Below are positions 2,265-17,185 of a stretch of DNA of 64,000 nt, piece after piece; positions within the stretch are counted from its first letter, which is position 1; every line of letters starts with the position of its first letter. The stretch comes from Candidatus Zambryskiibacteriota bacterium (GTDB lineage Bacteria > Patescibacteriota > Minisyncoccia > Phycocordibacterales > WO2-35-19). A model generated the notes under the pieces. That model had not been told where the DNA came from. It did no database searches and saw only the letters and a program-made list of their open reading frames with translations. Both the position numbers and the translations under genes were made by a program. Where the stretch lies: NCBI GenBank assembly GCA_963840745.1, contig CAWJAC010000005.1, positions 17,615 to 81,614 on the forward strand. Reading direction: 5' to 3'.

Positions 2265-2277
2265 CTTTTTAAAAATT

Positions 2278-2664
2278 ATGCGAAAAGATTTTGATAATTG
2301 GAATAAAAAGAAAAAGACAATTCACAATAATGGTGAAAATAAGCTTTACCATACAAGGGAATTATGGTGGTGTTCATTGGGGGTAAATATTGGATCAGAA
2401 CAAGATGGTTCTGGGGAGAAATATGATCGCCCAGTTTTGATTCTAAAAGGGTTGAGTAAACAAACTTGCATTGTTTTACCACTCACATCTTCGGGAGAAT
2501 TACATAAAATGAGGATTCCAATAGGAGAAGTTCAGGGCGAAAAAGCGTCAGTAATAATTTCCCAAATACGAACTGTGGATACGAAGAGGTTGATATACAA
2601 GATAGGATTTTTAGACAAAGATATCTTTATCGAAATAACAAAAACCATCAAGAGTTTATTTTGA
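2278..2664 (+). CDS. MazF/PemK/EndoA-family toxin-fold protein (mRNA interferase-like), orphan
   Basis: 129 aa counted from the ATG at 2278; the track ORF 2098.. overlaps the dnaX 3' end. 'GSEQDG...RPVLIL' and 'SQIRTVDTKRLIYKIGFLD' align to B. subtilis EndoA/YdcE motifs 'GSEQGG..RPVLVI' and 'EQIRTIDKQRLTDKITHLD'. Confidence 0.75.
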   Translation: MRKDFDNWNKKKKTIHNNGENKLYHTRELWWCSLGVNIGSEQDGSGEKYDRPVLILKGLSKQTCIVLPLTSSGELHKMRIPIGEVQGEKASVIISQIRTVDTKRLIYKIGFLDKDIFIEITKTIKSLF

Positions 2665-2787
2665 TGGTTTTCGTCTTTTTGCCCCCTTGCGGAGGCGAGC
2701 CCGAAGGCACTTGTACAGATAGTATAGCAAATCCAAAATAAAAGTCAAGAGGTCTGTGGATATGAATTGAGTATTAAAAAATAAATT

Positions 2788-3294
2788 ATGAATAACGAAA
2801 AAATTATAGTCATTCCCGGAGCGTTTCAATACGCAAAAAATTATGGCAATTATGATGGTCTTGATATTTGGCTAAAGGGAAAATTAGAAGAGGAAAAAAT
2901 TAAAAATGCAGATTTCGTTGTGGCTCATAGTTTAGGGACAAATTATGTTTTTTCTTTTCCTGTTTCCAACAATCAAAAATTTATTTTAGTAAACCCATCA
3001 ATCAAGAAAAGAGGATTTGTGAACCTTGTTATGAGAGATTTTAGATATCTTCTTTCAAAAATAGATAGTGTAAAGATGGGCAAGATTGTTCCTGTCTTAC
3101 ATTGGCCATCTGCATTTTATAAAGCATATAAACTTTCTAAAATTGATATTCTCTCGGTTCTTAAAAAAATTCCTAAAGAAAATATTTTTATAATAAGAGG
3201 CAAAAGAGACAGATTCTTTTGCGATGATGAAGTTGTCAATCTTATAAAAAAAGAAAATTTGCCATTGATTGAAGTTGATGCTGGACATGATTAG
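2788..3294 (+). CDS. small alpha/beta serine hydrolase (YdeN/RBBP9-like)
   Basis: 168 aa. Nucleophile elbow 'AHSLG' and a C-terminal 'DAGHD' with Asp/His candidates. Confidence 0.55.
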   Translation: MNNEKIIVIPGAFQYAKNYGNYDGLDIWLKGKLEEEKIKNADFVVAHSLGTNYVFSFPVSNNQKFILVNPSIKKRGFVNLVMRDFRYLLSKIDSVKMGKIVPVLHWPSAFYKAYKLSKIDILSVLKKIPKENIFIIRGKRDRFFCDDEVVNLIKKENLPLIEVDAGHD

Positions 3295-3334
3295 AACCAA
3301 AATATAGCTGAGGCTGTCAATAAAATAATTTCAA

Positions 3335-3841
3335 ATGAATCCTAAAATATCAAAAAATAACTATTCCAAAATTGAAAAAGTTTTGTACCAGATTTTTGAG
3401 TTTGGAATTCTTATAAAATTTTTTAACAGTGTCTGGGAAATAACAAGCGGACTGCTTATTTTGTATTTCGGCAAAGAAGCGATAACTAAGGTGTTTTATT
3501 TTTTGGCCGGCAGTGAGCTTTTGGAAAATCCGCGTGATTTCATTATTAATATTTCATTTGGATTTCTACAGAATTTATCACATAGCACTCAAATTTTTAT
3601 CGTTATCTATCTCTTAGTTCACGGTTTTATGAATTTGTTTTTAGCTATACAACTTTATAGAGACAAAATTTGGGCTTATTTGGCTACCATTATTATTATG
3701 GTTGTTTTTATGTTTTATCAAATACATCGTATTATTCTCTATCACTCACCGATTTTAATCGTCATTACTATTTTTGATATTTTATTTATTATCCTCACCT
3801 GGCACGAATATAACCGCAAGAAACTTATGAGAATGTTATAA
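3335..3841 (+). CDS. DUF2127-family integral membrane protein
   Basis: 168 aa, 4 predicted TM helices, 'ELLENPRD' motif. Confidence 0.5.
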   Translation: MNPKISKNNYSKIEKVLYQIFEFGILIKFFNSVWEITSGLLILYFGKEAITKVFYFLAGSELLENPRDFIINISFGFLQNLSHSTQIFIVIYLLVHGFMNLFLAIQLYRDKIWAYLATIIIMVVFMFYQIHRIILYHSPILIVITIFDILFIILTWHEYNRKKLMRML

Positions 3842-3848
3842 TATTTCC

Positions 3849-4439
3849 ATGCAACAATGGCTCATTTCAATATACGCGGCACACCATTATGAAATTTACG
3901 CTCTCATAATGATAATCGGCCTTTTTGAAGGACCTTTTATATCCATGGTTTGCGGAGCTATTCTGGCTTTAGGATATCTGAGTTTTTGGCCGGTTTATAT
4001 CGTGCTTATGCTTGGCGATTTAATTGGTGATGTCATTTTGTATTTCTTGGGCTATCGCTTTGGCGAAAAATTCATAAAAAGGTTTGGGAAATATTTCAAA
4101 ATCACCGAAGACCACATTTTAAATGTCAAAAATCTTTTTCATAGGCATAAAAATCCTCTGCTTTTTCTCTCCAAAATAACCAATGGTATGGGTTTTGCTG
4201 TTGCCGTTCTCTTCACAGCGGGCATGTCAAGGATTCCGTTTGGCAGATTTATGAGTATTAATGTTATTGGCCAGCTTATCTGGTCCGGAGGACTCATTGC
4301 TGTAGGATTCCTTTTTGGTGATTTGTACTTGAGCATAAACAGTGTGGCTGGCAAAATATCTATCTTGCTGCTGTTTGTGGTTGTTATTTTTGCCGTCAAC
4401 AGATATATTAAATATTTGCAAGAAAGAATAAATTCATAA
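3849..4439 (+). CDS. DedA/VTT-family membrane protein
   Basis: 196 aa. 'GPFISMVCGAILALGYLSFWPV...LGDLIGDVILYFLGYRFG' is a VTT-domain signature. Confidence 0.75.
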   Translation: MQQWLISIYAAHHYEIYALIMIIGLFEGPFISMVCGAILALGYLSFWPVYIVLMLGDLIGDVILYFLGYRFGEKFIKRFGKYFKITEDHILNVKNLFHRHKNPLLFLSKITNGMGFAVAVLFTAGMSRIPFGRFMSINVIGQLIWSGGLIAVGFLFGDLYLSINSVAGKISILLLFVVVIFAVNRYIKYLQERINS

Positions 4440-4441
4440 TC

Positions 4442-5167
4442 ATGAAAATAAGTATTGTTATACCGGTATGTAATGAAGAGAAAGATATTGAGAGACTAAT
4501 AGATTGTCTTTTGAATTTGTCCATAGAGAAAGAGATTATCGTTACTGACGATGCCAGTACCGACAAAACCCTGCAGGTGCTTGAAAAATATCAAGACAAA
4601 ATAAGGATACTTACCCATGAACACAGAAACAAATCCATTGCAGCAAACAGAAATGCCGGCGCCAAATACGCAAGCGGTGAATTTTTGGTTTTTATGGACG
4701 GCACCACTTACCTCAAAAATCCAAATGATTTTTTCAGTCGAGCTCTGGCAATATTTGAAAAAGATAAAGATTTGGTCGCTGTAACAGGTAAATTAAAGGT
4801 ACTGCCAGAGTTTGAGACAGTGGCTGATAAGATAATGCATTTTATTTTCAATTTCACGGTAATGATCAAGGATAATTATCTCGGGTTAACCGAAGCTTCT
4901 GGCAAATTTGAAATGATTAGAAGACTGGCCTTTGAAAAAGTGGGTGGCTTTGACGAAAAATTAATCACCAGAGAAGACGCCGATATGTTCTGGAGATTAT
5001 CCAAAATCGGCAAGACCAGATATGCGAGAGAATTGGAGGTTCTTTACACCGGCCGCAGAGCCCATATTTTGGGTTGGCCAAGACTGCTTTTTATATGGAT
5101 GACAGAAACTCTCTGGGTGATGGTATTTGGCAGAGCCAGGACAAAAGTATGGACGGTCGTAAGATAA
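4442..5167 (+). CDS. family 2 glycosyltransferase
   Basis: 241 aa. 'ISIVIPVCNEE...DDASTD' is a GT-A fold DxD-type signature. Confidence 0.8.
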   Translation: MKISIVIPVCNEEKDIERLIDCLLNLSIEKEIIVTDDASTDKTLQVLEKYQDKIRILTHEHRNKSIAANRNAGAKYASGEFLVFMDGTTYLKNPNDFFSRALAIFEKDKDLVAVTGKLKVLPEFETVADKIMHFIFNFTVMIKDNYLGLTEASGKFEMIRRLAFEKVGGFDEKLITREDADMFWRLSKIGKTRYARELEVLYTGRRAHILGWPRLLFIWMTETLWVMVFGRARTKVWTVVR

Positions 5168-5173
5168 TAAAAT

Positions 5174-5893
5174 ATGAAAATAAGTTTGGTCATACCAAGT
5201 TTCAATGAGGAAAAATATATAGGCGAATGTCTGAAAAATGCCCTGCAAAATGGCAAGGAACTTTTTGAGATAATAGTGGTTAATAATGCCAGCACCGATA
5301 ATACTGAAAGTGTAGCTAAATTTTTTTCAAATAATTATTCAAATATAAAAATCGTAAATGAGCCGAGAAAAGGCTTAACTAAGGCCCGCCAAAGAGGACT
5401 GCTAGAAGCGAGAGGGAATATAATCGCTTACACTGATGCTGATACTAAAATGCCAAACGATTGGGTAAAAAAAATTAACAAATATTTTGAAAAAGATGGA
5501 AAAACGGTGTGTGTCAGCGGGCCTTATATTTATTATGATCAATCATTTATTGGAAAAATATTGGTCTGGATTTATTGGCTTTTCGCTTATATAATGTATT
5601 TCTTGGTAGGATATATGGCGGTTGGAGGAAATTTTGCCGTGAGGAAAGAGGCTCTTCTGAAAATCGGCGGGTTTGACCAAAATATAAGTTTCTACGGAGA
5701 AGACACCGATATAGCCAGAAGGCTGTCCAAGGTCGGCAAAGTCAAATTCTTCCTGAATCTATATATGTACACTTCTGCCAGGCGTTTAAAGAATGAGGGA
5801 ATGGTAAAAATGACAATAAAATATCTGATTAATTTTATTTCTGAAGTATTTTTTAAAAAACCCATTACGGACGAATATAAAGACATAAGATAA
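5174..5893 (+). CDS. family 2 glycosyltransferase
   Basis: 239 aa. 'ISLVIPSFNEE...VVNNASTDNT', 'DADT'. Paralogous to the upstream GT2 gene. Confidence 0.8.
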   Translation: MKISLVIPSFNEEKYIGECLKNALQNGKELFEIIVVNNASTDNTESVAKFFSNNYSNIKIVNEPRKGLTKARQRGLLEARGNIIAYTDADTKMPNDWVKKINKYFEKDGKTVCVSGPYIYYDQSFIGKILVWIYWLFAYIMYFLVGYMAVGGNFAVRKEALLKIGGFDQNISFYGEDTDIARRLSKVGKVKFFLNLYMYTSARRLKNEGMVKMTIKYLINFISEVFFKKPITDEYKDIR

Positions 5894-6531
5894 TGGAAAA
5901 AATCAAAGCAAAATATAAGATCCATTTTGGCAGCAGAGATTTTTTGATATCTTTGTTGGTTTCTTTTTTTATACTTGGTGTGGCATTGGTGGCCAATCAT
6001 TATGCCGGTATTTACGTCACAGAAAAAGCCAGCAACCCGGTCACGGATATAGTCTTGGACAATACAAGAGTTTATGATGTAGATGCCATTTTTGTTTACG
6101 GGCCGGTTCTTATGTGGATATTTGTCGCCGGTTTGCTTGCTATCCATCCACAACGTATTCCTTTCCTTATAAAAAGTACCGGTCTGTTTTACCTGATCCG
6201 TTCTGTTTTTATAAGCCTTACTCACATAGCTCCGCCCGCAATGCATGCTGTTATACCATCAACCGGATTATTTGGTTATCTTGGTTCGGGAGCCGACTTG
6301 TTTTTTTCTGCGCATACGGGCTTTCCATTTTTGCTAGCTCTTATGTTTTGGGAAAATAAGAGTTTACGTATTTTCTTTATTATTCTTTCTTTGGTTTTTG
6401 GGGTTGTGGTTTTGCTTGGGCATTTACACTATTCCATCGACGTGTTGTCCGCCTTCTTTATTTCATACGGCATTTACCGCATAACCGAAATAATTTTTCC
6501 AAAAGACAGGGAGAGATTCCTATCCGCATAA
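5893..6531 (+). CDS. PAP2_C-like lipid phosphotransferase/phosphatase membrane protein
   Basis: 212 aa polytopic. 'FFSAHTG' and 'GHLHYSIDVLSAF' match the PAP2_C / sphingomyelin-synthase-like (F)SGHT and HYTxDV motifs. Confidence 0.5.
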   Translation: MEKIKAKYKIHFGSRDFLISLLVSFFILGVALVANHYAGIYVTEKASNPVTDIVLDNTRVYDVDAIFVYGPVLMWIFVAGLLAIHPQRIPFLIKSTGLFYLIRSVFISLTHIAPPAMHAVIPSTGLFGYLGSGADLFFSAHTGFPFLLALMFWENKSLRIFFIILSLVFGVVVLLGHLHYSIDVLSAFFISYGIYRITEIIFPKDRERFLSA

Positions 6532-6551
6532 TAATCGGATAACAATAAAAA

Positions 6552-8402
6552 ATGCGACTTATAATAAAAACAGCTAAATTTGATATCGTTCTTTCTTTAT
6601 TGATAGTTCTAGCTATAGCGCTACATTTCAGCGGTTTTGGAAAAACTCAAATAGCTTCTTATTTTTTGATCGCCATCGCCATAATCGGCACGTTGCCGGT
6701 CGCAATAAGTGCTGTCCGCCAGATATTTAAAAAAGAAATTTCAATGGACCTTCTGGCTTCTGTTGCTTTAATTTTTTCTCTTTTAAGTGCAGAGTGGGTG
6801 GGAGCTTCATTTATCGCCCTTATGATAACCGCCGCCCGCATTTTAAAATCAGTCACTGAGAGTCAGACAGAAAGAAGCATAAAAAGCCTTTTCAAATTAC
6901 GCCCTAAAAAAGCCAGAGTAATAAAAAATAATGATATTGAAGAAATACCCATAGAAAAATTAAAAATGGGAGATGTTGTGATAGTTGATTTGGGAGACAG
7001 AGTGCCGGTAGACGGGAAGGTGGTTTCGGGCACTTTTAGTATTGACGAATCGTCTCTCACCGGAGAATCCATGCCAGTCGATAAAAATACTGGCGACAAA
7101 GTTTTCAGCTCTACTATTGTTGTTTCCGGAAGCGGTCATATTTTGGTGGAAAAAATAGGCAGCAATACCACTTTGGAAAAAATTATATCTCTGCTTGAGT
7201 CTTCTGGAAAATTCAAGCCGCGCTTCCAAACCATTGGAGAAAAATTCGGCAAGATTTATTTAATGGGAATTTTTATAGTTTCTTTCCTGTCCCTTTATAT
7301 TACCCACAACACTAGTCTAGTTTTATCAATTTTGCTTGTCATTTGCGCCGATGACGTGGCCGTGGCAGTGCCGCTGGCTTATCTTTCGGCCACTAGACGA
7401 GCCGCCAAAATTGGCACCATTATAAAAGGCAGCAGTTACTTGGAAGCTTTGGGAAAAGTTGATACGGTTGTTTTTGACAAAACCGGAACCTTGACCAAAG
7501 GTCATTTGCAGGTAAGCGAAATAAAATCTTTTTCACAATATAGTGACAAGGAATTGCTTTCTTTTTGCGGTTCTCTCATGGAACAATCCAGCCACCCCGT
7601 TTCCAAAACAATTTTTAATTATGCTAAAGATCAAAAAGTTCATTTGGAATTGGTGGAAAACGTAGAGGAGATCGGCGGCATGGGATTAACTGGCAAATTT
7701 GAAAACAAACAGATTCTTTTTGGCCGAAAAGCTTTTTTAGTATCACGTAAAATAGATATTAGCGAAGAAGCTTCGGCAGAAATATCACGTCTTGAAAATG
7801 ACGGCAAGAGCAATTCTTTCGTGGTGGTAGACGGTAAGCTCGCCGGCATTATAGCCCTGACAGATGAAGTGCGTGAGGAAGCCAAAGAAGCCATTAGCCG
7901 CATAAAAAAACTGGGCATTAAAAAAGTTGTGATGCTTACCGGCGATAATGAAAAAGTGGCCGGAAGGATCGCCAGAGAAGTTGGCATAACCGAATTTCAT
8001 GCCAACCTTTTCCCCGAACAAAAAGTTGCTTACATTAAAAAATATATCGATGCCAAAGAAAATGTGGCCATGGTGGGGGATGGGGTCAATGACGCCGCGG
8101 CAATGCGCATAGCCACCGTCGGCATTGCTATGGGAGCCATCGGTTATGACACCGCCATCGAATCGGCCGACATAGTGCTTATGAGAGATGACATTTCAAA
8201 AATTGCCGAGGTTATGAAATTGGCCAGATTTACCGAACATGTATCTATCCAGGATTTTTGGATTTGGGGATTTTCCAATGTCTTGGGTCTTTCCCTCGTC
8301 TTTATCGGTGCGGTTGGCCCGACCGGCGCCGCCGCTTACAATTTCCTGACCGACTTTTTCCCTCTCTTTAATTCCCTAAGAGCCGGTAAAACTAGACAAT
8401 AA
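6552..8402 (+). CDS. P-type (P1B-like) cation-transporting ATPase lacking an N-terminal metal-binding domain
   Basis: 616 aa. Phosphorylation motif 'DKTGTLT', 'TGDN' and 'GDGVNDAAAM' hinge. The TM helix upstream reads 'ICADDVAVAVP', aligning to CopA 'CPCALGLATP'. Confidence 0.85.
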   Translation: MRLIIKTAKFDIVLSLLIVLAIALHFSGFGKTQIASYFLIAIAIIGTLPVAISAVRQIFKKEISMDLLASVALIFSLLSAEWVGASFIALMITAARILKSVTESQTERSIKSLFKLRPKKARVIKNNDIEEIPIEKLKMGDVVIVDLGDRVPVDGKVVSGTFSIDESSLTGESMPVDKNTGDKVFSSTIVVSGSGHILVEKIGSNTTLEKIISLLESSGKFKPRFQTIGEKFGKIYLMGIFIVSFLSLYITHNTSLVLSILLVICADDVAVAVPLAYLSATRRAAKIGTIIKGSSYLEALGKVDTVVFDKTGTLTKGHLQVSEIKSFSQYSDKELLSFCGSLMEQSSHPVSKTIFNYAKDQKVHLELVENVEEIGGMGLTGKFENKQILFGRKAFLVSRKIDISEEASAEISRLENDGKSNSFVVVDGKLAGIIALTDEVREEAKEAISRIKKLGIKKVVMLTGDNEKVAGRIAREVGITEFHANLFPEQKVAYIKKYIDAKENVAMVGDGVNDAAAMRIATVGIAMGAIGYDTAIESADIVLMRDDISKIAEVMKLARFTEHVSIQDFWIWGFSNVLGLSLVFIGAVGPTGAAAYNFLTDFFPLFNSLRAGKTRQ

Positions 8403-8403
8403 A

Positions 8404-8998
8404 ATGGAAGATAAAATATTACAAAATAAAACAGATAAGACTGACCAGGAATTCGTCAAAGTGGCCCTTAAGGACCGGCATGCTTTTTCGGAAATTGTGC
8501 ATCGCTATGAAGCAGCTATCCGCCGCTATGTGAAGCGTCTCGGCTGTAAAAATGAGAACGACGTAGATGATGTTTTGCAAGAAATTTTCATAAAAGTATT
8601 CATTAATCTCAATGACTATGATCCAAATCTGAAGTTTTCTTCATGGCTCTATCGCATTGCTCACAACGAAACCATCTCTTTTTTTAGAAAGAGAAATGTT
8701 CAGCCCAAACGTATTAGACATTGAAGATATCGAAGGATTTTTTGAAAATTTGGTTGACGATACCGATTTTACAGAACTTGCCAAAGAGCGGTATGACGCT
8801 AAAATTGTGCAGGAAGTCCTTTCTACTCTTAATCAAAAGTACAATGAAATACTTGTACTCCGCTTTCTTGAAGAAAAAAGTTATACTGAAATAAGCGACA
8901 TTTTGAAAATACCGGAAGGCACCGTGGCCACGCTCATCAGTCGGGGCAAAAAAGAATTAAAAATCGCATTGGAAGAGAGGGGTATTAAAAATATATGA
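8404..8998 (+). CDS. ECF-type sigma-70 family RNA polymerase sigma factor, interrupted by a +1 frameshift at a T7 run (8679-8685)
   Basis: ORFs 8404..8724 (region 2, 'DVLQEIFIKVF...YRIAHNETISFFRK') and 8657..8998 (region 4 HTH, 'ILVLRFLEEKSYTEISDILKIPEGTVATLISRGKKEL') are in adjacent frames. Removing one T restores a ~197 aa protein. Confidence 0.7.
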
Positions 8999-9687
8999 AT
9001 GACGAGTTATCAAATAAAATTATAGAGCAAATCGATGCAGAAAAAATTTCGCCGAGGCCGTATTGGTACTTTGTCTCTCTACGGGTGATTTTTTGGATTT
9101 TTGCCTTTCTTTCAGTAATTGTCGGCAGTCTTGCTGTCGGAGCAATGCTTTTTCTATTTGTTGATTATCACGCCCACGGTCTTTCGATAATTCCGCATGA
9201 TTTGACCGAGTTTTTGCTTCTTATACCGTACATTTGGCTTATTGTGTTTGTCTTGTTCATTATAATAGGCCGGGAAAGCATAAAACACACCAAAAGAGGA
9301 TACAAATACCGTTTATACGCCATAGTTTCGGTGAGTGTATTTTTGAGTTTTATATTCGGCTCCATTTTTAATTTTATAGGAGGCGGTAAAACAGTTCACG
9401 AGTCTTTAAGCAGAGTCCCGCTTTATGCTTATGTAACCTATGATTCAAGAGACGCCTGGGATCAGCCGGGCATAGGAAGACTGGCGGGAATTGTCACATT
9501 TATAAAAGACAAAAATGATTTCTCTATAATTGATTTCAACGGACACATCTGGCAGGTTAGGCTTGCCGCTTCCACCAATAGCAATAACTTCACTGTGGAA
9601 GCAAGTTCAACTGTTAGAATATCCGGTTTTCTTGATCCTTTATCGAACACATTTATTGCAAAATCTATAGTTGAGTGGGAAGAATAG
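8995..9687 (+). CDS. membrane protein, putative anti-sigma factor
   Basis: 230 aa. Start overlaps the sigma stop by 4 nt. Short cytoplasmic N-terminus 'IEQIDAEKISPRP', then TM helices and an extracytoplasmic C-terminal domain. Confidence 0.45.
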   Translation: MNDELSNKIIEQIDAEKISPRPYWYFVSLRVIFWIFAFLSVIVGSLAVGAMLFLFVDYHAHGLSIIPHDLTEFLLLIPYIWLIVFVLFIIIGRESIKHTKRGYKYRLYAIVSVSVFLSFIFGSIFNFIGGGKTVHESLSRVPLYAYVTYDSRDAWDQPGIGRLAGIVTFIKDKNDFSIIDFNGHIWQVRLAASTNSNNFTVEASSTVRISGFLDPLSNTFIAKSIVEWEE

Positions 9688-9764
9688 TTTTTGAAAGAAA
9701 TCTTTTATGCAGACGTATAAATAAGTGTGGGTCGATAATTAATCGATAAAAACTATGAACTTTT

Positions 9765-9797
9765 ACAAAAGAGGCCACTAGGGTCTCTTTTGTTATC
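9765..9797 (+). terminator. rho-independent terminator-like hairpin
   Basis: Perfect 9-bp inverted repeat ACAAAAGAG/CTCTTTTGT with an 11-nt loop, followed by a T-rich tract. Confidence 0.5.
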
Positions 9798-9920
9798 TAT
9801 GAAAGATTTACGCGTATTGAAATGTATTATCTAATGAAGCGGCCTGCAACTAATTGCTTCCGCTTCTCGTATATATCATAAAGGTTCATAGGTTATTAAT
9901 TACATAATCTTAAATTACAA

Positions 9921-10667
9921 ATGAAAAATAAAATTGGAATAATTGTAATCAGCTCTGCTATGCTTGGCCCTCTCCTTATAGGAAGTGTCGCGTTTGCGGC
10001 TGATTATGGTCTTGGAAATAGCGGTATAGGAAGTCGTGCTCCGGGTATTTTCGGTACTGTTTCTGTAATAAACGGTACAAATCTCACGGTAACTAGCAAA
10101 GGTTTCGGCCAAAATACGACTCAGACCACTTACACCGTTGATGCAACAAATGCAACTGTTACTAAAAACGGTACCACTTCAACTATTGGAAATGTAGTTG
10201 TGGGTGACACGGTATCTGTGCAGGGTACGGTTAATGGGACAAATGTTACCGCAACAACAATTCGCGATGGTGTGATTGGCCGTAAAGGTATGCGAGGAGG
10301 GCAGAATAATGTGCCAAAAACACCGATTATTCAAGGAAATGGCCAGCCGGTTGTCGGCGGTACCATAGCTTCCATAAGCGGGACAACTTTGACGGTGACT
10401 AACGCCAGCAATGTTACGTATACAGTTGACGCCTCTTCGGCCACTATTGTAAAAGGTAACGCCACATCAACAATCTCAAACATAAGTGTTGGCGATAGAG
10501 TTGTAGTACAAGGTACAGTAAATAGCACTTCTATTACCGCTTCTTCAGTCATTGACCAGGGAGTCGCGCCAAGCAATACAAATTCAACAGGTTCTTCTAA
10601 TCAAAATGGGGGAGGTTTCTTTGGAGCTGTCAGAGGATTCTTCCATAGAATGTTCGGGTTCTTCTAG
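9921..10667 (+). CDS. secreted DUF5666-like repeat protein (two ~45-aa internal repeats)
   Basis: 248 aa with a signal peptide. Repeats 'TYTVDATNATVTKNGTTSTIGNVVVGDTVSVQGTVNGTNVTATTI' and 'TYTVDASSATIVKGNATSTISNISVGDRVVVQGTVNSTSITASSV'. Gly/Phe-rich C-terminus. Confidence 0.6.
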   Translation: MKNKIGIIVISSAMLGPLLIGSVAFAADYGLGNSGIGSRAPGIFGTVSVINGTNLTVTSKGFGQNTTQTTYTVDATNATVTKNGTTSTIGNVVVGDTVSVQGTVNGTNVTATTIRDGVIGRKGMRGGQNNVPKTPIIQGNGQPVVGGTIASISGTTLTVTNASNVTYTVDASSATIVKGNATSTISNISVGDRVVVQGTVNSTSITASSVIDQGVAPSNTNSTGSSNQNGGGFFGAVRGFFHRMFGFF

Positions 10668-10947
10668 TAACAATAATCTTTTGAAAGAAGTCTCTATTAG
10701 TGTACGTACAAATAAGTAGAGGTCGAGGATTATAAATAATATTCTGAGGCTAAAAGCTATATTGATTGGTGAGTGAACGAAATTTAATCAATTATAAATA
10801 TAGTCAGCGGACATTAAGCATCTTCAAGTTTGTTGTATCTAATACGGCTCGCTTGTTAGACAGCTCGTTCTAAGACTTAAAGGTTCGTCAAAATTCAACC
10901 AGTTAATTAAGCCAAAAAAAATAACATGTGATTGAATACATGATTTT

Positions 10948-10983
10948 ACAAAAGAAGCTTCTCCCGAGGCTTCTTTTGTTATG
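10948..10983 (+). terminator. terminator-like hairpin, paralogous to 9765-9797
   Basis: 11-bp inverted repeat ACAAAAGAAGC/GCTTCTTTTGT with a 10-nt loop, then a T-rich tract. Stem changes relative to the copy at 9765 are compensatory. Confidence 0.45.
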
Positions 10984-11030
10984 TGTAATTTTTACTAAAT
11001 TAAAAAAATATGTTAGTCTTGTGTTGTAAT

Positions 11031-11101
11031 TGGGAGGTCGTCTAACGGTAGGACAACAGCCTTTGAAGCTGTGTATGAAGGTCCGATTCCTTCCCTCCCA
11101 G
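11031..11101 (+). tRNA. tRNA-Gln (anticodon UUG)
   Basis: Manual fold. Acceptor TGGGAGG/CCTCCCA. D-arm GTCT/GGAC. Anticodon stem ACAGC/GCTGT with loop CTTTGAA (anticodon TTG). 4-nt variable loop. T-arm GAAGG-TCCGATT-CCTTC. Discriminator G. CCA is not encoded. Confidence 0.85.
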
Positions 11102-12550
11102 CATTTGAGATAAAGTGCCATTTTTGGGTGCTTTATACATCACATCAAACGGAGTTTTAAGTTTAATTTGAGCCACATTTTTATCTTTGAAAGAAAGGTT
11201 CCAACATAGATTTTCTACAATATTTCTTTTTTTGAAATCATCAGCATCTAAAAATTCTTTCATGGCTCTGTTGCCTTGTAGAAAAGCATTTTTAGTCGGT
11301 TCCAACATAGAAGCTGGTTGTCTGTTTTTTAATTCTTGGATCTGCTTGTCTAGAGATATTCTGTCATTGTGAATACCCAACATTTTTTGGTCGTATATTT
11401 CCTTTGAAATCTGATCAGCAAGGAAAGTATCGAGTAATTTGTTTTCTTTCGTTTTAAGCGATTCTAGTGAGCTTTGGAGGGTAGCTAAGGCAGTGTCAAA
11501 GTATTCGGTATCTAAGCCTGCTTTCTCTTTGGCCGCTTTGTACATAAGTTCAATTTTACGTTCAGAGAAAGCCAAATTACCGAGAATATTGGCAAAAATA
11601 CTATAAAGATAAGTTTCTCTCATATAGCTTTTATGTTCTTCGCATTTCTCTTTTCTGTTGGTGCAGTAGTAATAATGATGTCCTTTTTTAAGAGAAGAGG
11701 TTAAAGCACAACCGCAATTTTCACACTTTAGGAATCCTCTTAAGGGGAAGAATAATCTTTTGGTTTTTGGTCTTGATTTATCGGCTAACAATTCTTGAGC
11801 TTTGTCATAATCAGATTTTGAAATTAATGGTTCGTGATTGCCGTTATAATATTTTCCATCTCTAACCATAATACCTGCGTAAAAAGGGGACGATAAAATT
11901 CGGCTGATGTGGCTTATCAAAACTTTCTTTCCCGATTTTGTTCGCAATCCTTCGTCAAACAAAATTCTGGCAACATCTCTGTATCCATAACTGCCAGTCA
12001 AATATAATTCATAAGCTCTTTTTACATACTTGGAACGGACAGGGTCAATGATTATTGTTTTTTTAGCTTTGTCATTCAAATATCCGAACGGAGCTTGATT
12101 AGGCCATTCACCACGAGCAAGTTTTTCTCTGTTTCCTCGTTTAACATTTACACTTAAATCTCTGATATATTGGTTTGCCATTGCTTGCTCAATGCTCATA
12201 AGCAAAACATTGTCGTTTGGATAATATGATTTTTCAAAAGTTCTAATGCATTTAATTTTATTATTTTGCAGTAGCCACTGAATTTGTCCGCCATCAACGG
12301 GATTTCTGGTTAAGCGATCAATTTTCCAACAGAGAATAGCGTCAGCTTTACCGGCAGAAAGCATTTTTATCATTTCGTTAAAAATGGGGCGACCGGGCTC
12401 TTTGGCAGATTTGCTTTCTCTTAATATTTTTACTATCTCAAAATTTTCTTTTTGAGCTATTTCTTTAAGTTCGTTTTCTTGTGAATCCAAGGACAAAACC
12501 TGTTTGTCTTCTGTATCAGTAGATTTCCGGCAATAGATTAGATATTTCAT
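11042..12550 (-). CDS. large serine recombinase (integrase)
   Basis: 502 aa. N-terminal resolvase catalytic domain 'YCRKSTDTEDKQVLSLDSQ', recombinase domain, zinc ribbon 'CENCGCALTS...YYYC', C-terminal coiled coil. The 3' end of the ORF runs antisense through tRNA-Gln. Confidence 0.85.
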   Translation of the reverse strand: MKYLIYCRKSTDTEDKQVLSLDSQENELKEIAQKENFEIVKILRESKSAKEPGRPIFNEMIKMLSAGKADAILCWKIDRLTRNPVDGGQIQWLLQNNKIKCIRTFEKSYYPNDNVLLMSIEQAMANQYIRDLSVNVKRGNREKLARGEWPNQAPFGYLNDKAKKTIIIDPVRSKYVKRAYELYLTGSYGYRDVARILFDEGLRTKSGKKVLISHISRILSSPFYAGIMVRDGKYYNGNHEPLISKSDYDKAQELLADKSRPKTKRLFFPLRGFLKCENCGCALTSSLKKGHHYYYCTNRKEKCEEHKSYMRETYLYSIFANILGNLAFSERKIELMYKAAKEKAGLDTEYFDTALATLQSSLESLKTKENKLLDTFLADQISKEIYDQKMLGIHNDRISLDKQIQELKNRQPASMLEPTKNAFLQGNRAMKEFLDADDFKKRNIVENLCWNLSFKDKNVAQIKLKTPFDVMYKAPKNGTLSQMLGGKESDLHTQLQRLLSYR

Positions 12551-13371
12551 GTTAGATAACTTTTATTAATAAACCCTATCACATCTTCCTTTAAATCAGA
12601 AAGTTCGGAAAGGTTCATAACTTCATATTGAATTTTACCCTGATAATCTGTATCAATTTCCTTACTGAATTCTGGCTTTATATTATTAAGTTTTTCCTCA
12701 ATTTTGGAAGCTAAAACTTCATCTCTTATAACAATCGGTCGGAAAAGATTTCTACTAGGAAAATATCTTTTATGCCCCTCAAGTCTTGGATCAATGAAAT
12801 CTTTGGACATATACTTAGTCATGTATAATCCGATATTTCTAACTTGCTCAATATTGCGTATTTTTATAAATCCATGCTCCCAAATTTTGGCTAATTCATC
12901 TTTATCAAACCAATGCAAATTAAAATATACTGAATGAAAATGTTCAGCTCCTCTTTTCTGAAATTCTGGGTTAGTAACATATTTTAAATGATTTGTTTTT
13001 TCTCCAGTCAGATAATAATTAAATCTTTTCAAAAAATTTGTATACATTTTATTTCCTTGCTCTAAATCAGTTATGTTTTCTGCAAAAGTTAAAGTTATAA
13101 ATTTTGGCTGATAAATTTTACCATCCGGATCAGACCACTGTCTTGCATTAGCATTAATGAGACGCGTCAGATTTTTTCTTGTCCTGTACAAAGATCTAGC
13201 TTTCATTAAATCCTTTTCCTCTTGAGTTTTAACCCTGTCGGAATCAGAATGTTTTTCCGGAGCTTCAAAACCATAAAAAACCGGCTCCTCATATTTGTAA
13301 GTTTCTACAATATCACCGGATATAACCACTTTAATTTTTGTCCTCATCGTATTAAGTGTGATATTAATCAA
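12547..13371 (-). CDS. HUH-superfamily rolling-circle replication initiator (phiX174/Microviridae gpA-like Rep)
   Basis: 274 aa. Motif I 'FITLTF', motif II 'HFHSVYF', motif III with two Tyr 'LYMTKYMSK' (compare phiX174 'YVAKYVNK'). Confidence 0.75.
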   Translation of the reverse strand: MINITLNTMRTKIKVVISGDIVETYKYEEPVFYGFEAPEKHSDSDRVKTQEEKDLMKARSLYRTRKNLTRLINANARQWSDPDGKIYQPKFITLTFAENITDLEQGNKMYTNFLKRFNYYLTGEKTNHLKYVTNPEFQKRGAEHFHSVYFNLHWFDKDELAKIWEHGFIKIRNIEQVRNIGLYMTKYMSKDFIDPRLEGHKRYFPSRNLFRPIVIRDEVLASKIEEKLNNIKPEFSKEIDTDYQGKIQYEVMNLSELSDLKEDVIGFINKSYLT

Positions 13372-13373
13372 GT

Positions 13374-13661
13374 CTAAAGAGGCGGCTCATTTTGTCGCGG
13401 GGCTTTAATGCCCGCTCCAAAATCCGCCGCCGACTTTTTACCCGAGTATGCCAAAAACAAACCAGCCAAAGAATTTAAATATTCTTCGGCTTGTTCTAGA
13501 GACAAATCTAAATTATCTTCTTCCTTGAAGACTTTAATTGTTTCGTCTATAAGTTCCTTGGAGAATGTGGCATTTAGAATATCTCCCTTATCGAGAGATA
13601 AAGATTGCCTTAAATTTTTTGGCAAGGACATCTGATTGGCCCATGCCCACACTAAATGCAA
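13374..13661 (-). CDS. hypothetical protein (mobile-element associated)
   Basis: 95 aa ORF co-oriented with and abutting the Rep gene. No recognisable motifs. Confidence 0.35.
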   Translation of the reverse strand: MHLVWAWANQMSLPKNLRQSLSLDKGDILNATFSKELIDETIKVFKEEDNLDLSLEQAEEYLNSLAGLFLAYSGKKSAADFGAGIKAPRQNEPPL

Positions 13662-13813
13662 CTACAACAGATTAAATTGTATTACGCTGAAAAAAGTTTG
13701 CAAGTTTACTGCACACGAAAATGATGCCGTGATATTCAATAAAAAAATAGAAAATTTTGCCTTAAAAATACATTTGTTTTAATTCGTGTCATATGTGATA
13801 CTTATGATTATTA

Positions 13814-14646
13814 ATGCCAATATCTACTTTAAACAAACCAATGGTAAAAATTAACAGGATTTCAAAACCATATTTTCATCATGATGGCAGAATTGCTATT
13901 TACAACGATGATATTTTAAAATTTACAAAAATACCAGATGGTTCCGTTGATCTGATCATTACATCACCACCTTACAATGTGGACATTCACTATAACTCAC
14001 ATGCAGATAATTTGAGCTATGAAGACTATTTGGAGTTCACGACAAAATGGATTAAAAGATGTTTTGAGTTAACTAAAAATGAGGGTCGTCTTTGTTTGAA
14101 TATTCCACTTGATAAAAATAAAGGCGGACAAAAATCTGTCGGTGCAGATATTACAAAAATTGCAAAAGATGTCGGCTGGAAATACCACTCAACAATTATT
14201 TGGAATGAGGGAAACATATCCCGCCGAACGGCTTGGGGTTCGTTTATGTCTGCCTCTGCCCCATATGTTATCGCACCTGTGGAATTGATTTTAATTTTAT
14301 ATAAAGATAGCTGGAAGAAAAATGGTGGGAGTAGAAAAAATGACATAACGAAACAGGAATTTATGGACTGGACTAATGGAGTTTGGACATTCAATGGCCA
14401 AAGCAAAAAAGGAGCTGGTGGACATCCGGCGGCTTTTCCAATTGAATTACCTAGGCGTTGTATCAAATTATTTAGTTTTATTGATGATATTGTGTTTGAC
14501 CCGTTTCTGGGGAGTGGTTCACTCTTATTGCTTCATATTTGAATAATCGCAAAGGTATGGGTGTTGATATTGATAAAGAATATTGCGATATTGCTATAAG
14601 TCGTTTAAAAGAGGAGGGTAAAATTAATCAGCCAATATTAATGTAA
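13814..14646 (+). CDS. beta-class N6-adenine/N4-cytosine DNA methyltransferase with a -1 frameshift near 14519-14521
   Basis: Motif IV 'DLIITSPPY' precedes motif I 'DPFLGSGS'. The ORF stops at 14542, but the neighbouring frame continues 'TLIASYLNNRKGMGVDIDKEYCDIAISRL...' to 14646, the expected MTase C-terminus. One nucleotide appears to be missing. Confidence 0.75.
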
Positions 14647-14651
14647 TTATC

Positions 14652-15254
14652 ATGAAAAAGAAAAATGAGAAGAAAGATAATAATGTTCAAAAAAATCTCA
14701 TAGTTGAGTTTTTCAAGAAAAATCCAAACAGAGATATAAAACATCCAGAGGTTGTTGACTGGGTTGTCGCAACATATAAAAAACGAACTGGTAATGTATT
14801 CCGAGACCCAGATAGAGCAGTTCGCAGTCTGGCACAAAAAGGATTTTTAATAAAAGTTGCTAAAGGAATTTATCGCTATGACCCCGAAAAAGAATTTCTA
14901 CGAGAATTACAAGATTTTACATCGGCACAAAAAGAAGAAATTTTAAAAAGAGACGGGTATAAATGTGTAATATGTGGTAGAGGAAAAGCAGACGGGATGG
15001 AACTTCATGTTGACCATATAAAACCAAAAGATTTTGGAGGTGAAGCAACAATTGAAAACGGCCAAACATTATGCTCACAACATAATTTTATAAAGAAAAA
15101 TCTCAAACAAACGGAAACAGGAAAGAAAATGTTTATCCGTTTATATGAATTGGCAAAAAGCGAAAATAACCCCGAGTTGGTAAAATTTTGTGCTGATGTA
15201 TTGGAGACCTATGAAAAACACAACATAAACGGGCATATTGTTTGGAATAAATAA
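14652..15254 (+). CDS. HNH endonuclease (putative Type II restriction endonuclease partner of the methyltransferase)
   Basis: 200 aa. 'CVICGRG...HVDHIKPKDFGG...NGQTLCSQHN' HNH motif with an N-terminal DNA-binding-like domain. Lies 6 nt downstream of the MTase frame end. Confidence 0.7.
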   Translation: MKKKNEKKDNNVQKNLIVEFFKKNPNRDIKHPEVVDWVVATYKKRTGNVFRDPDRAVRSLAQKGFLIKVAKGIYRYDPEKEFLRELQDFTSAQKEEILKRDGYKCVICGRGKADGMELHVDHIKPKDFGGEATIENGQTLCSQHNFIKKNLKQTETGKKMFIRLYELAKSENNPELVKFCADVLETYEKHNINGHIVWNK

Positions 15255-15541
15255 TTATGAAATAGAAATAAAATTTTGTTTGGAAATTTAAATAGTTATT
15301 ATGCAAACCACAACAATTTTAGATTTAATAAGAATACTGCTTTCTTGGCCACCCGTTGGAGCAATTGTTTTTTTCTTTTTTGTTTATAAGTTTGGGGGTT
15401 CAATTAAGATTTTTCTTGAAACACATGAACTAACAGGGGGCAGGACCGGTTAATGTTCAACAAAAACAGCCTAACCATTCTTCAGAAAGAGATTCAAATA
15501 ATGATTCTGTTATAGAAAATCCCGAATTAGAAAAAGAGAAA

Positions 15542-15907
15542 TTGAAAAAAGAAATAGATGACCTAAAAATAAAGGTTGAGAATGAGTCTAGGGGTAAAAA
15601 AAATCTAGAAGAACTTTTTGGTGTACAGCAAAGACTAACTGAAATAAATGAATTTTCATATCTAGCTTTATTTTTTGTTGATCAAACAAAGAGAGTTTTA
15701 AAATGGTTTTATGATTCAAAAAGTAATCAAACCATCACCAAAGAATCATTTAACCAATTATGGTTGCCATTTATTACAGATTTGAACCAAAGAGAGGTTA
15801 TTTTTACTCTTTTAAATGCTTACGGAATGATATCAGGTGTTCTTGGGGGAGCATTTGTTATTACAGAAAAAGGTGAACGATTTTTAAAATCTATAAATTT
15901 TATTTAA
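15542..15907 (+). CDS. hypothetical protein
   Basis: 121 aa ORF with a TTG start. The reading frame is open further upstream with no in-frame ATG. No motifs. Confidence 0.3.
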   Translation: MKKEIDDLKIKVENESRGKKNLEELFGVQQRLTEINEFSYLALFFVDQTKRVLKWFYDSKSNQTITKESFNQLWLPFITDLNQREVIFTLLNAYGMISGVLGGAFVITEKGERFLKSINFI

Positions 15908-16101
15908 TTAAACAGGTTCCAACTTCGTACCAGACGGCCAGCCACAGTCAGCGAGGTGTAGAGCAGACCGGAGAGCCTTATTTTGAGCAATATTTCTAGA
16001 ACTACTAAAATTCGTCCATGATGGGTAGAAATTACTAAAATGCAAAATGTGTTTCAAAATAAAGAAAAAGCGAGATTCGATTCCTAGAAACATAAAATGC
16101 T

Positions 16102-17139
16102 ATGATTGAAGATATGAAAAACCAACACAGTAAGGTCTGGACGTGGACGCTCATCGTACTCGCACTACTTGTCGTCGGCGGGGGAGTATATTTTCTCATC
16201 CACCAGCAAACATATTCGCCAGCAGACACTGCTACAACTACTTCGCCCGTAACAGCCAACACCTATGGGATGGTCCAATACACCGATCCGGATTTCAATT
16301 TCAGCTTCTGGTACCCAAGCTCTTGGCAAATTCTTCCGACGACCACGAAGAATACGACGTCGTTTCCAGGTGGCACCTTGGTAAAGACATTGCAGATTGG
16401 TTCGGCAGGCGGTGTCACAATCAGCATCGTCAATTCTCCAAACCAAACAATCACCGATGAGCCAAACATCCACGCAAGCCCGATTGCTCAGACGAAATAT
16501 TTCTATGACTCAGCGTCGAAACAATGGATGGTCGCATATCCCGAGGGAACAAATTCGGGGACGGAGGCCACGACCACTGCAAATATTTCGAATACAACGA
16601 TAGCAGGTCTCGTTATGCTTCCAAGCGGTCGTCGTTTTGATACAAGCATAATTCCCTTAAGCACAACGAACTTTCTCGTCGTGAGTGATGGAGGAGGAAG
16701 CAATGCTACGGTTCTCGCAAAAACTATTTCATTTGCGGGAAGCTCTGTCAGTTCTTCAGTCCTATCCGCTACATTACAGACGGAAGCGAATACCTATACA
16801 GACACAAGTACCGCTTCCAACATTCAGCAACTGAATGCGCCTGGAAGCGTATCGCTCCAACAAGGCGGCATCGCTGAAATTCGAAACAAAAGTTTTTACT
16901 TCACTCTACAAAGCCTCTCATCGTCTTTAGCCACAATCCAAATCACGCCAGTCGGATGCTGGAATTCCTTCCCGTCGGACACGCCGCCTAAGATTCGTTG
17001 TATGATCGCTGTCATGCCTATACCGCCGCAAACGCTTTCTGTCGGCCAAACGTATAGTGCCGCGAACTATAGCATTACACTCACGCAAATTAGCAACGGC
17101 ACGGCAACATTTTCAGTGGGTGCGCCATCGGCGATTTAG
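16102..17139 (+). CDS. secreted/membrane-anchored Thr/Ser-rich protein of unknown function (GC-rich, likely horizontally acquired)
   Basis: 345 aa, N-terminal TM helix. Local GC ~50% against a ~38% background, producing many spurious overlapping ORFs on both strands. Confidence 0.55.
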   Translation: MIEDMKNQHSKVWTWTLIVLALLVVGGGVYFLIHQQTYSPADTATTTSPVTANTYGMVQYTDPDFNFSFWYPSSWQILPTTTKNTTSFPGGTLVKTLQIGSAGGVTISIVNSPNQTITDEPNIHASPIAQTKYFYDSASKQWMVAYPEGTNSGTEATTTANISNTTIAGLVMLPSGRRFDTSIIPLSTTNFLVVSDGGGSNATVLAKTISFAGSSVSSSVLSATLQTEANTYTDTSTASNIQQLNAPGSVSLQQGGIAEIRNKSFYFTLQSLSSSLATIQITPVGCWNSFPSDTPPKIRCMIAVMPIPPQTLSVGQTYSAANYSITLTQISNGTATFSVGAPSAI

Positions 17140-17185
17140 TAAGGAAGAATAAGGAAAAGATGGGTCTTTTTTAATTGAATATCAT

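Follow-up and report, generated by a model that had tools for sequence, protein, structure and literature searches.

A 4.84-kb segment of the Candidatus Zambryskiibacteriota contig CAWJAC010000005.1 is very probably one integrated copy of a small integrative rolling-circle plasmid, inserted at a tRNA-Gln gene. It occupies approximately positions 11103–15942 of the 64,000-nt stretch analyzed here (the window, whose positions are used throughout) and carries a large serine integrase, a HUH-type rolling-circle replication initiator (Rep), a small open reading frame (ORF) designated orfS and a DNA methyltransferase next to an HNH nuclease. Related elements are spread across Patescibacteria, also known as the candidate phyla radiation (CPR), where they apparently form a large and undescribed family of mini integrative plasmids; searches of the full-text literature found no description of this CPR integrase–Rep family. 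The initial annotation of this DNA had already read the region as a mobile element integrated at tRNA-Gln of a CPR-like genome, and the anatomy of the attachment (att) sites, an empty site in a relative (locus L178), a separate contig that covers the same element (L180) and a family with circular members all support that proposal. The source samples are ERR10755942 and ERZ25039512.

One line of evidence for integration comes from the integrase gene itself. Its 3' end had been described as running antisense through tRNA-Gln(UUG), and we found that the final 61 nt of the ORF are indeed the antisense of this gene, which is the one tRNA gene in the window. Residues 1–483/484 (11099/11102–12550) are encoded by the element, with the crossover falling within 11098–11102, while the last ~18 residues and the stop codon (11042–11098) come from the tRNA antisense. 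Across the integrase family, proteins are conserved up to residue ~483 (…KAPKNGTLSQM) and then fall into two tail classes: the majority end in translated antisense tRNA T-arms (…DSNPD, …ESNQD, …DSNLR), and a minority read xVW(Y/D)(E/D)VGT…. A tail of the second class is encoded, detached and in frame, at the opposite end of the element, where the minus strand from 15941 to 15900 reads CTG GCC GTC TGG TAC GAA GTT GGA ACC TGT TTA ATT AAA TAA, that is, L-AVWYEVGTCLIK. Joining …SQM to L-AVWYEVGTCLIK reproduces the second tail class with the constant spacing of the family. Read from the sequence in this way, the integrase ORF is split by integration, and its predicted natural ending of ~12 codons (AVWYEVGTCLIK*) now lies at the far end of the element.

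This detached tail exon is also the putative P arm of the attP site. It contains the family DNA motif GGTTCCAACTTCGTACCAGAC at 15915–15935 (GGTTCCAACnTCGTmCCAGAC), which occurs once in the window against 0.00 chance matches expected; written as a search pattern, the P-arm motif of the family is TGGnACGAnGTTGGAAC. The far end is also shared with the two closest elements, in loci L013 (27/27 nt identical) and L012 (90% over 42 nt), and similarity to both stops at 15942–15945. Even the four-fold degenerate sites of the tail codons are conserved (GTT in 63/70, GGA in 68/70 and NAC in 65/70), so the conserved tail peptide should not be attributed to selection on the protein alone. Instead, the pattern points to a constraint on the DNA, which may serve as an integrase binding site.

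We found the same register between integrase and tRNA throughout the family. Scans of species-representative genomes and of Joint Genome Institute metagenomes each returned >550 related stretches, and the best 160 loci were analyzed. An opposite-strand tRNA ends at integrase codon 483/484 in 87 of the 116 non-redundant loci that could be anchored. When offsets were scored for the 59 tRNA-bearing loci of the genome scan, 57 shared a single value, which argues that the overlap between integrase and tRNA is not due to chance. Eleven tRNA types serve as targets, namely Gln (n = 48), Ser (n = 16), Trp, Lys, Leu, Tyr, Arg, Ile, Gly, Asn and Val, and codon 484 appears to track the tRNA type, being mostly L at Gln, mostly R at Ser and Trp, and C at Lys, Leu, Tyr and Gly. 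The strict form of the tail motif was found 73 times on the integrase strand compared to 3 times on the other strand (2.05 Mb searched), and it lies 2.5–10 kb upstream of the integrase in 21 of the 37 integrated loci with enough sequence.

Sequence records with titles place the family almost entirely within Patescibacteria, including Zambryski-, Azam-, Nomura-, Taylor-, Campbell-, Kaiser-, Yonath-, Komeili-, Morani- and Buchananbacteria as well as Paceibacteria. The 29 elements that could be bounded measure 3.3–9.3 kb. A Rep of the PF23343 family abuts the integrase in about 50 loci, and in at least 7 of the remaining loci its position is taken by an initiator of ~345 aa from PF05144 (gene II-type, or inovirus-type G2P). 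The element in the window belongs with these by its tRNA register, its detached tail exon with the P-arm motif and its orfS–Rep–integrase operon. Three circular relatives carry the tail in its fused form and lack a tRNA: L011 (4.4 kb) has a 121-nt terminal overlap, L175 (5.9 kb) has one of 30 nt, and L173 and L174 (4.6 kb), recovered from two samples, are circular permutations of each other. Terminal overlaps were present in 0 of the 80 metagenome loci, and the circularity of the family rests on these sequences.

The two ends of the element have only CCAGC in common, with attL reading …CCCTC CCAGC ATTTGAG… and attR reading …GACGG CCAGC CACAGTC…. Imperfect attL/attR repeats had been anticipated in the initial annotation, and we found none beyond these 5 nt. 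Serine integrases usually exchange strands across a 2-bp crossover within att sites of short identity, and the sites seen here are likewise short and free of long direct repeats. The tRNA-Gln is kept intact through its discriminator base, with its 3' acceptor and T-arm forming the B arm of the attachment site. No displaced tRNA fragment was found in the window by direct and inverted repeat searches or by local alignment of the tRNA region to the rest, because the crossover identity is only 5 nt. The predicted attP contains ...CCAGACGGCCAGCATTTGAGAT... and has the junction ...CTTCGTACCAGACGGCCAGCATTTGAGATAAAGTGCC..., and the predicted attB has the junction ...GATTCCTTCCCTCCCAGCCACAGTCAGCGAGG.... 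A GC-rich stretch at 15908–15990 was also considered as a possible RNA gene and rejected: it coincides with the att site, and an Rfam scan of 10–18.5 kb matched the tRNA and nothing else. An older integrase in decay was also sought on the right-hand side of attR, with tblastn and hidden Markov models, and nothing credible came up.

These boundaries agree with an empty tRNA-Gln site, which the initial annotation had recommended looking for and which we found in L178 (GCA_009712145.1). There, dnaX is followed by tRNA-Gln(UUG) at 9786–9857, by a 143-nt spacer and by a homologue, 71% identical, of the protein encoded at 16102–17139 in the window. The L178 spacer aligns with window positions 15945–16101, with CAGTC…, TCGTCCAnGAnGGGT and AAAATGCTATGATTGAnGATATGAAAAA in common, and the sole difference at the junction is a CCA present in the window. 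This extra CCA means that the crossover is placed only within about 5 nt. We also considered placing the crossover one step further on, at the CA that follows the discriminator, so that attB would have the same form as in L178. This was rejected for two reasons: the spacing of free-form tails, otherwise constant at 8 residues, would gain a residue, and the far end of L012 is not explained by it.

The same comparison decides the status of the gene at 16102–17139, which encodes a T/S-rich, membrane-anchored protein with hundreds of homologues in Paceibacteria. Its GC content is 48.6%, compared to 39.5% for the rest of the window and at most 46.4% for any other 1-kb stretch, but its homologues in L177 and L178 have a comparably high GC content and the genomes of these relatives have 46–49% GC. 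Because the homologue in L178 follows the tRNA-Gln without any element, we conclude that the gene is host DNA. A gene of ~50% GC was therefore correctly noted at the outset but wrongly taken as cargo, and the original extent of 11031–17150 has to be shortened to a right end at ~15942, as given by L178 synteny and the tail exon. We see almost no chance that the element reaches ~17150 after all, or that the integrase–tRNA overlap is a coincidence of ORF calling. The first idea draws on the gene having the highest GC content of any 1-kb stretch and is refuted by its position directly after tRNA-Gln in the element-free L178, as well as being at odds with its many homologues in Paceibacteria; the second conflicts with a register that recurs in nearly all scored loci and with a family that spans 11 tRNA types. 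Within the revised boundaries, the compositional checks proposed earlier do single out the element: its GC content of 33.2% is ~5 standard deviations below background windows of equal size (4.84 kb; 39.6 ± 1.3%), and its tetranucleotide profile is the most deviant of the window.

Two further sequences bear on the element as a unit. L001, from a separate assembly, contains the same junction of Rep, integrase, tRNA and host, which shows that the window is not a chimera. L180 (ERZ25039512 contig_94150, 4,823 bp) aligns to window positions 11100–15919 and to nothing else, starting at the predicted left crossover and ending 19 nt before the right one. It is a mosaic variant: 100% identical to the window at 11500–13700 and 15300–15919, which comprise the N-terminal two-thirds of the integrase, Rep and orfS plus the right-end ORFs, and ~15% divergent in the C-terminal third of the integrase (~130 residues) and in the methyltransferase–HNH module. 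This pattern suggests that modules have been exchanged between co-occurring variants.

Domains and conserved residues identify the integrase as a genuine member of the large serine integrases. It matches PHROG 95 'integrase' at 2e-89 and the Resolvase domain PF00239 at 3e-23, and has the order Resolvase, Recombinase and Zn_ribbon_recom. The catalytic residues R8, S10, D78, R79 and R82 are present and are invariant or nearly so in 118 homologues; C276, C279 and C296 of the zinc ribbon are invariant and C303 nearly so, and every residue that is invariant among the 118 is retained here. AlphaFold2 models contain long paired helices at 330–410, consistent with a coiled coil, and the model of the window protein has a mean predicted local distance difference test (pLDDT) score of 84.3, falling to 45–53 in the tRNA-encoded tail. 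Fold comparison with Foldseek was made with the model of a family member from the circle L175 (P0376, 59% identical); its top matches were to serine integrase–att complexes, namely 9y66 and 9dxh (both with E about 1e-22), Bxb1, PhiC31 and 4kis. In P0376, the free-form tail is modeled as a helix at 480–494 with a pLDDT of 84–89.

The HUH Rep and the small ORF were both initially annotated behind the recombinase and both stand (Table 1). Rep probably starts at ATG 13347, giving 266 aa and a 4-nt ATGA overlap with the integrase start. Its motifs I–III (FITLTF, H136-F-H138 and Y175..K178-Y179) are intact and their H, Y and K are invariant in 120/120 homologues; alignment found the catalytic residues of recombinase and Rep alike in place, as the initial annotation had asked to be checked. 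At least 10 related elements, with either type of Rep, have an orfS homologue in this place; its only Pfam match is a weak AbrB/MazE-like one, and it is a candidate regulator or directionality factor. The Rep–integrase operon and the methyltransferase–HNH cargo diverge from a 150-nt intergenic region.

Table 1. Features of the integrated element and its attachment site in the window.
Feature	Position	Strand	Basis or remark
tRNA-Gln(UUG), host	11031..11102	+	ARAGORN; Rfam RF00005, 61.8 bits
attL crossover region CCAGC	11098..11102	.	last tRNA bases and one more; sequence and register analysis
Large serine integrase, 502 aa as integrated	11042..12550	-	Pfam PF00239, PF07508, PF13408; PHROG 95
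HUH rolling-circle replication initiator (Rep)	12547..13371	-	PF23343, E=1e-20; PHROG 3419/3584
Small conserved ORF (orfS)	13374..13661	-	likely start ATG 13631; immediately precedes Rep
Cargo: beta-class N4/N6 DNA methyltransferase	13814..14646	+	PF01555, 2e-35; frameshifted
Cargo: 200-aa HNH-domain nuclease	14652..15254	+	PF01844, 6e-10
Cargo: two ORFs, 50 aa (hydrophobic) and 121 aa	15301..15907	+	ORF list; both 100% conserved in L180
Detached 3' tail exon of the integrase (L-AVWYEVGTCLIK*), also putative attP P arm	15900..15941	-	in-frame reading
attR crossover region CCAGC	15938..15942	.	followed by CCA, then host spacer
Host spacer (B' side)	15943..16101	+	homologous to L178 spacer from ~15945 (CAGTC...)

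The cargo had been described as a divergently transcribed Type II restriction–modification pair. Both genes are present and divergent from the core. As assembled, the methyltransferase is not intact: its ORF spans 13814–14542, a -1 frameshift lies near 14520, and the last 41 codons are found in a different frame, which runs as far as 14646. At precisely 14520, L180 carries one additional A, so the defect may be an assembly indel. A second frameshift occurs nearby, in an ECF-type sigma factor (8404–8998) that is split into overlapping ORFs at 8404–8724 and 8657–8998; taken together, the two make assembly indels a live explanation for the methyltransferase defect. The HNH protein is presumed to be the restriction partner of the methyltransferase, although it matched no PADLOC restriction endonuclease model at 1e-5 or other characterized restriction enzyme, and its sequence matches in the PDB were weak only. 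The 50-aa and 121-aa ORFs have no Pfam or PHROG matches. Over 14148–14476, the methyltransferase gene has 70% nucleotide identity to the N4/N6 methylase of Sulfolobus monocaudavirus SMV3, the element's sole match in the phage collection.

The replication protein raises the question of a phage origin, namely that the element is a defective prophage or a satellite of an ssDNA phage (inovirus- or microvirus-like) with a gene II-type Rep and packaging by a helper. Both Rep families, PF23343 and PF05144, are common to inoviruses and plectroviruses, there are PHROG matches, and the element has no transfer genes of its own: Pfam searches of the element and of the relatives' cargo recovered no relaxase, type IV secretion or FtsK-like translocase domains. 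We nevertheless consider this origin improbable. Pfam and PHROG scans of the element revealed no phage structural genes (pI/Zot, coat, capsid or terminase), in keeping with the initial annotation, and morphogenesis, coat and capsid genes are likewise missing from the 29 bounded relatives, as judged from the 25 commonest Pfam families among 145 cargo proteins of the bounded elements and L011. The closest characterized Reps belong to small plasmids: the window Rep is 35–39% identical over ~90% of its length to those of Firmicute plasmids of 1.5–8 kb. Searches of viral and plasmid databases, another early suggestion, paid off for the Rep, with matches to these plasmids and to PHROG families, and gave nearly nothing in viral contigs, where single-protein scans yielded one weak Rep match and no integrase match.

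In the integrative plasmid that we propose, orfS, Rep and the integrase form a core operon and the remainder is exchangeable cargo, represented here by the methyltransferase–HNH module. The attP site lies inside the 3' end of the integrase gene, with a P' arm that encodes …KAPKN…M/L and a P arm that encodes the tail. The integrase would recombine attP with the extreme 3' end of tRNA-Gln, crossing over within CCAG(C) at tRNA positions ~70–74. Such an integration spares the tRNA and displaces the last ~12 integrase codons 4.8 kb away to attR, leaving an integrase gene that runs on into the tRNA antisense. Excision would rebuild the full integrase gene on a circle, which Rep would then replicate by the rolling-circle route. 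The anatomy and boundaries of the element, the empty site in a relative, the circular relatives with their fused tails and the intact catalytic motifs are all directly seen, whereas we only infer that this copy can still excise and be replicated by Rep; as for movement between cells, uptake by transformation or with a helper are guesses.

Several observations weigh against this interpretation. The methyltransferase is frameshifted and the integrase tail is non-native and modeled at low confidence, so this copy may be inactive. No replication origin was recognized in the element (no origin search was made), and no directionality factor or transfer function was identified in it. The relative with the empty site is distant (49% GC), and its junction differs by 3 nt (CCA). 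L180 breaks off 19 nt before attR without a terminal overlap, and its ends may mark assembly breaks and not a circle. For the exact strain, neither a circular junction nor an empty site was found, exact searches for attB in genome contigs and for attP in metagenome and viral contigs having returned 0 matches.

Some of these points would also be expected of a fixed, decaying remnant, which arrived as described but is now immobile, having lost its native integrase tail while its cargo degenerates. The methyltransferase frameshift, the failure to find junction sequences in contigs and the predicted disorder of the integrated tail (compared to the free-form helix of the relative) all speak for it. 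We regard a remnant as unlikely, because the integrase, Rep and orfS are full length with all invariant residues kept, both att half-sites are intact and match those of close relatives, and a variant whose core is 100% identical was recovered as a contig of its own (L180). The frameshifted sigma factor also favors assembly indels over decay. An integrated plasmid that retains its recombination and replication genes remains our preferred reading.

Other members of the family carry quite different cargo. Anti-phage defense functions are prominent among the 145 cargo proteins, including methyltransferases, CfrBI-, Mrr- and MTES-type nucleases, ThsB-TIR, SMODS, Shedu SduA, AAA_15, DUF2726 and DUF559, and there are also Fic and NUDIX proteins and transporters. 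The circular L011 carries a ThsB-TIR and Trypco2 pair (1897–2755). An element at tRNA-Lys in L005 (7394–9741) encodes an SDH-type protease, a helix-turn-helix protein and a 209-aa ORF, and four genes resembling type IV secretion system pilins lie just beyond its far end. The cargo of these two relatives is entirely different from that of the window element.

Related loci also suggest that elements can accumulate at the same tRNA. L012 contains a different large serine recombinase (3278–5173; 631 aa, 31% identical) fused in frame to the far-end tail exon, as would be expected if a newcomer had integrated between the tRNA and a resident element; we take this to indicate tandem integration at an occupied tRNA-Gln. 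In L015 (1–5600), nine tail-exon sites occur in 11 kb, seven of them with a near-identical ~30-nt core plus P arm (for example, GCTGGGGGTCTGGTACGATGTTGGAACC), and L014 (300–6500) has six. The sites in both loci are spaced by unique segments of 0.3–1.4 kb, which encode neither integrase nor Rep and contain small ORFs, most of them without annotation. These arrays could be accreted remnants or cassette-like units. Incoming elements appear able to use the occupied site, which would build tRNA-proximal arrays of short cargo units, each flanked by a near-identical core and P-arm site. Such arrays could work in the manner of an integron, as a store of cassettes handled by a serine integrase.

The displaced tail raises a second possibility. 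The coding sequence of the native C-terminal helix spans attP, and the helix would exist only on the circle; its loss upon integration could alter the activity or direction of the integrase. A built-in switch of this kind could replace or supplement a separate directionality factor. We offer a tail-dependent switch as a hypothesis, on which two observations pull in opposite directions: the well-modeled helix of the free-form tail, and the conservation of degenerate sites in its codons. A functional remodeling of the integrase on integration, and with it occupied-site arrays acting as an integron-like store, is speculative and rather unlikely.

Upstream of the tRNA, a stretch of ~8.8 kb (2265–11030) separates dnaX from tRNA-Gln; it is missing between these genes in L178, which has 34 nt there. 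It encodes a MazF-like toxin, membrane proteins, two GT2 glycosyltransferases, PAP2, a P-type ATPase, a sigma/anti-sigma pair and a T/S-rich protein, and is partly deviant in composition; no integrase was seen in it. A dnaX homologue lies within ~0.5–1.3 kb of the tRNA in L012–L014, L019 and L021.

Mobile elements of CPR/Patescibacteria have barely been catalogued, and genetic tools for these organisms are scarce. The family is compact and abundant, with hundreds of loci in many candidate CPR lineages, and follows a simple set of rules: one integrase, one Rep, a short and predictable attP, a lineage-specific tRNA whose 3' end is the target, and cargo rich in defense genes. It may represent a route by which defense genes spread among streamlined episymbionts. 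It also offers a natural chassis for integrative or replicative CPR vectors, and a set of integrases whose specificity appears to follow the tRNA acceptor end.

Several known systems share parts of this design. Homologous Reps are found in small Firmicute rolling-circle plasmids (for example, NC_004938 from Brevibacillus, 1.8 kb, and NC_022994 from Geobacillus, 1.5 kb), but these have no integrase and are not known to integrate. The pSAM2-type integrative plasmids of actinomycetes (AICEs) combine rolling-circle replication with integration at a tRNA 3' end, and weak matches to Pfam RepSA were also seen. However, pSAM2 uses a tyrosine integrase with Xis, a long identity segment that rebuilds the tRNA and an FtsK-like transfer gene, none of which occurs in the CPR element. 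In archaeal integration of the SSV1 type and in the integration-dependent immunity of mycobacteriophages, attP lies inside a coding gene and integration changes its product. Both rely on tyrosine recombinases, with SSV1 splitting its integrase near the N terminus and the mycobacteriophage system cutting a repressor.

Like the CPR elements, the tycheposons of Prochlorococcus are small, target tRNAs and occur in streamlined genomes, but they measure 10–20 kb and replicate with primase, helicase and polymerase modules, and tyrosine recombinases were found in 910/937 elements of that dataset (bioRxiv 10.1101/2020.12.28.424599). The closest analogue is provided by the ssrA islands of Dehalococcoides, which likewise insert into the 3' portion of a small RNA gene, occur in tandem arrays and vary in their cargo (McMurdie et al. 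2011, PMC3146451). The arrays in L015 and L014 resemble the tandem islands and cis-mobilizable remnants described there. The ssrA islands occur in another phylum, are much larger and use tmRNA as target, with a 20-bp direct repeat, a DsiA/DsiB pair (Ccr-like) and no replication genes (PMC3146451), whereas the CPR elements use tRNAs, share 5 nt of identity, pair a single integrase with a rolling-circle Rep and span 3–9 kb. In those islands, the serine recombinase gene dsiB (DsiB) lies beside attL, with a 3' end that extends in antisense into the target RNA gene, and the authors speculated that the recombinase gene is complete only on the circle (PMC3146451). The CPR family adds a serine-recombinase case in which attP is contained within the integrase gene, as had been mentioned in passing for the Dehalococcoides islands.

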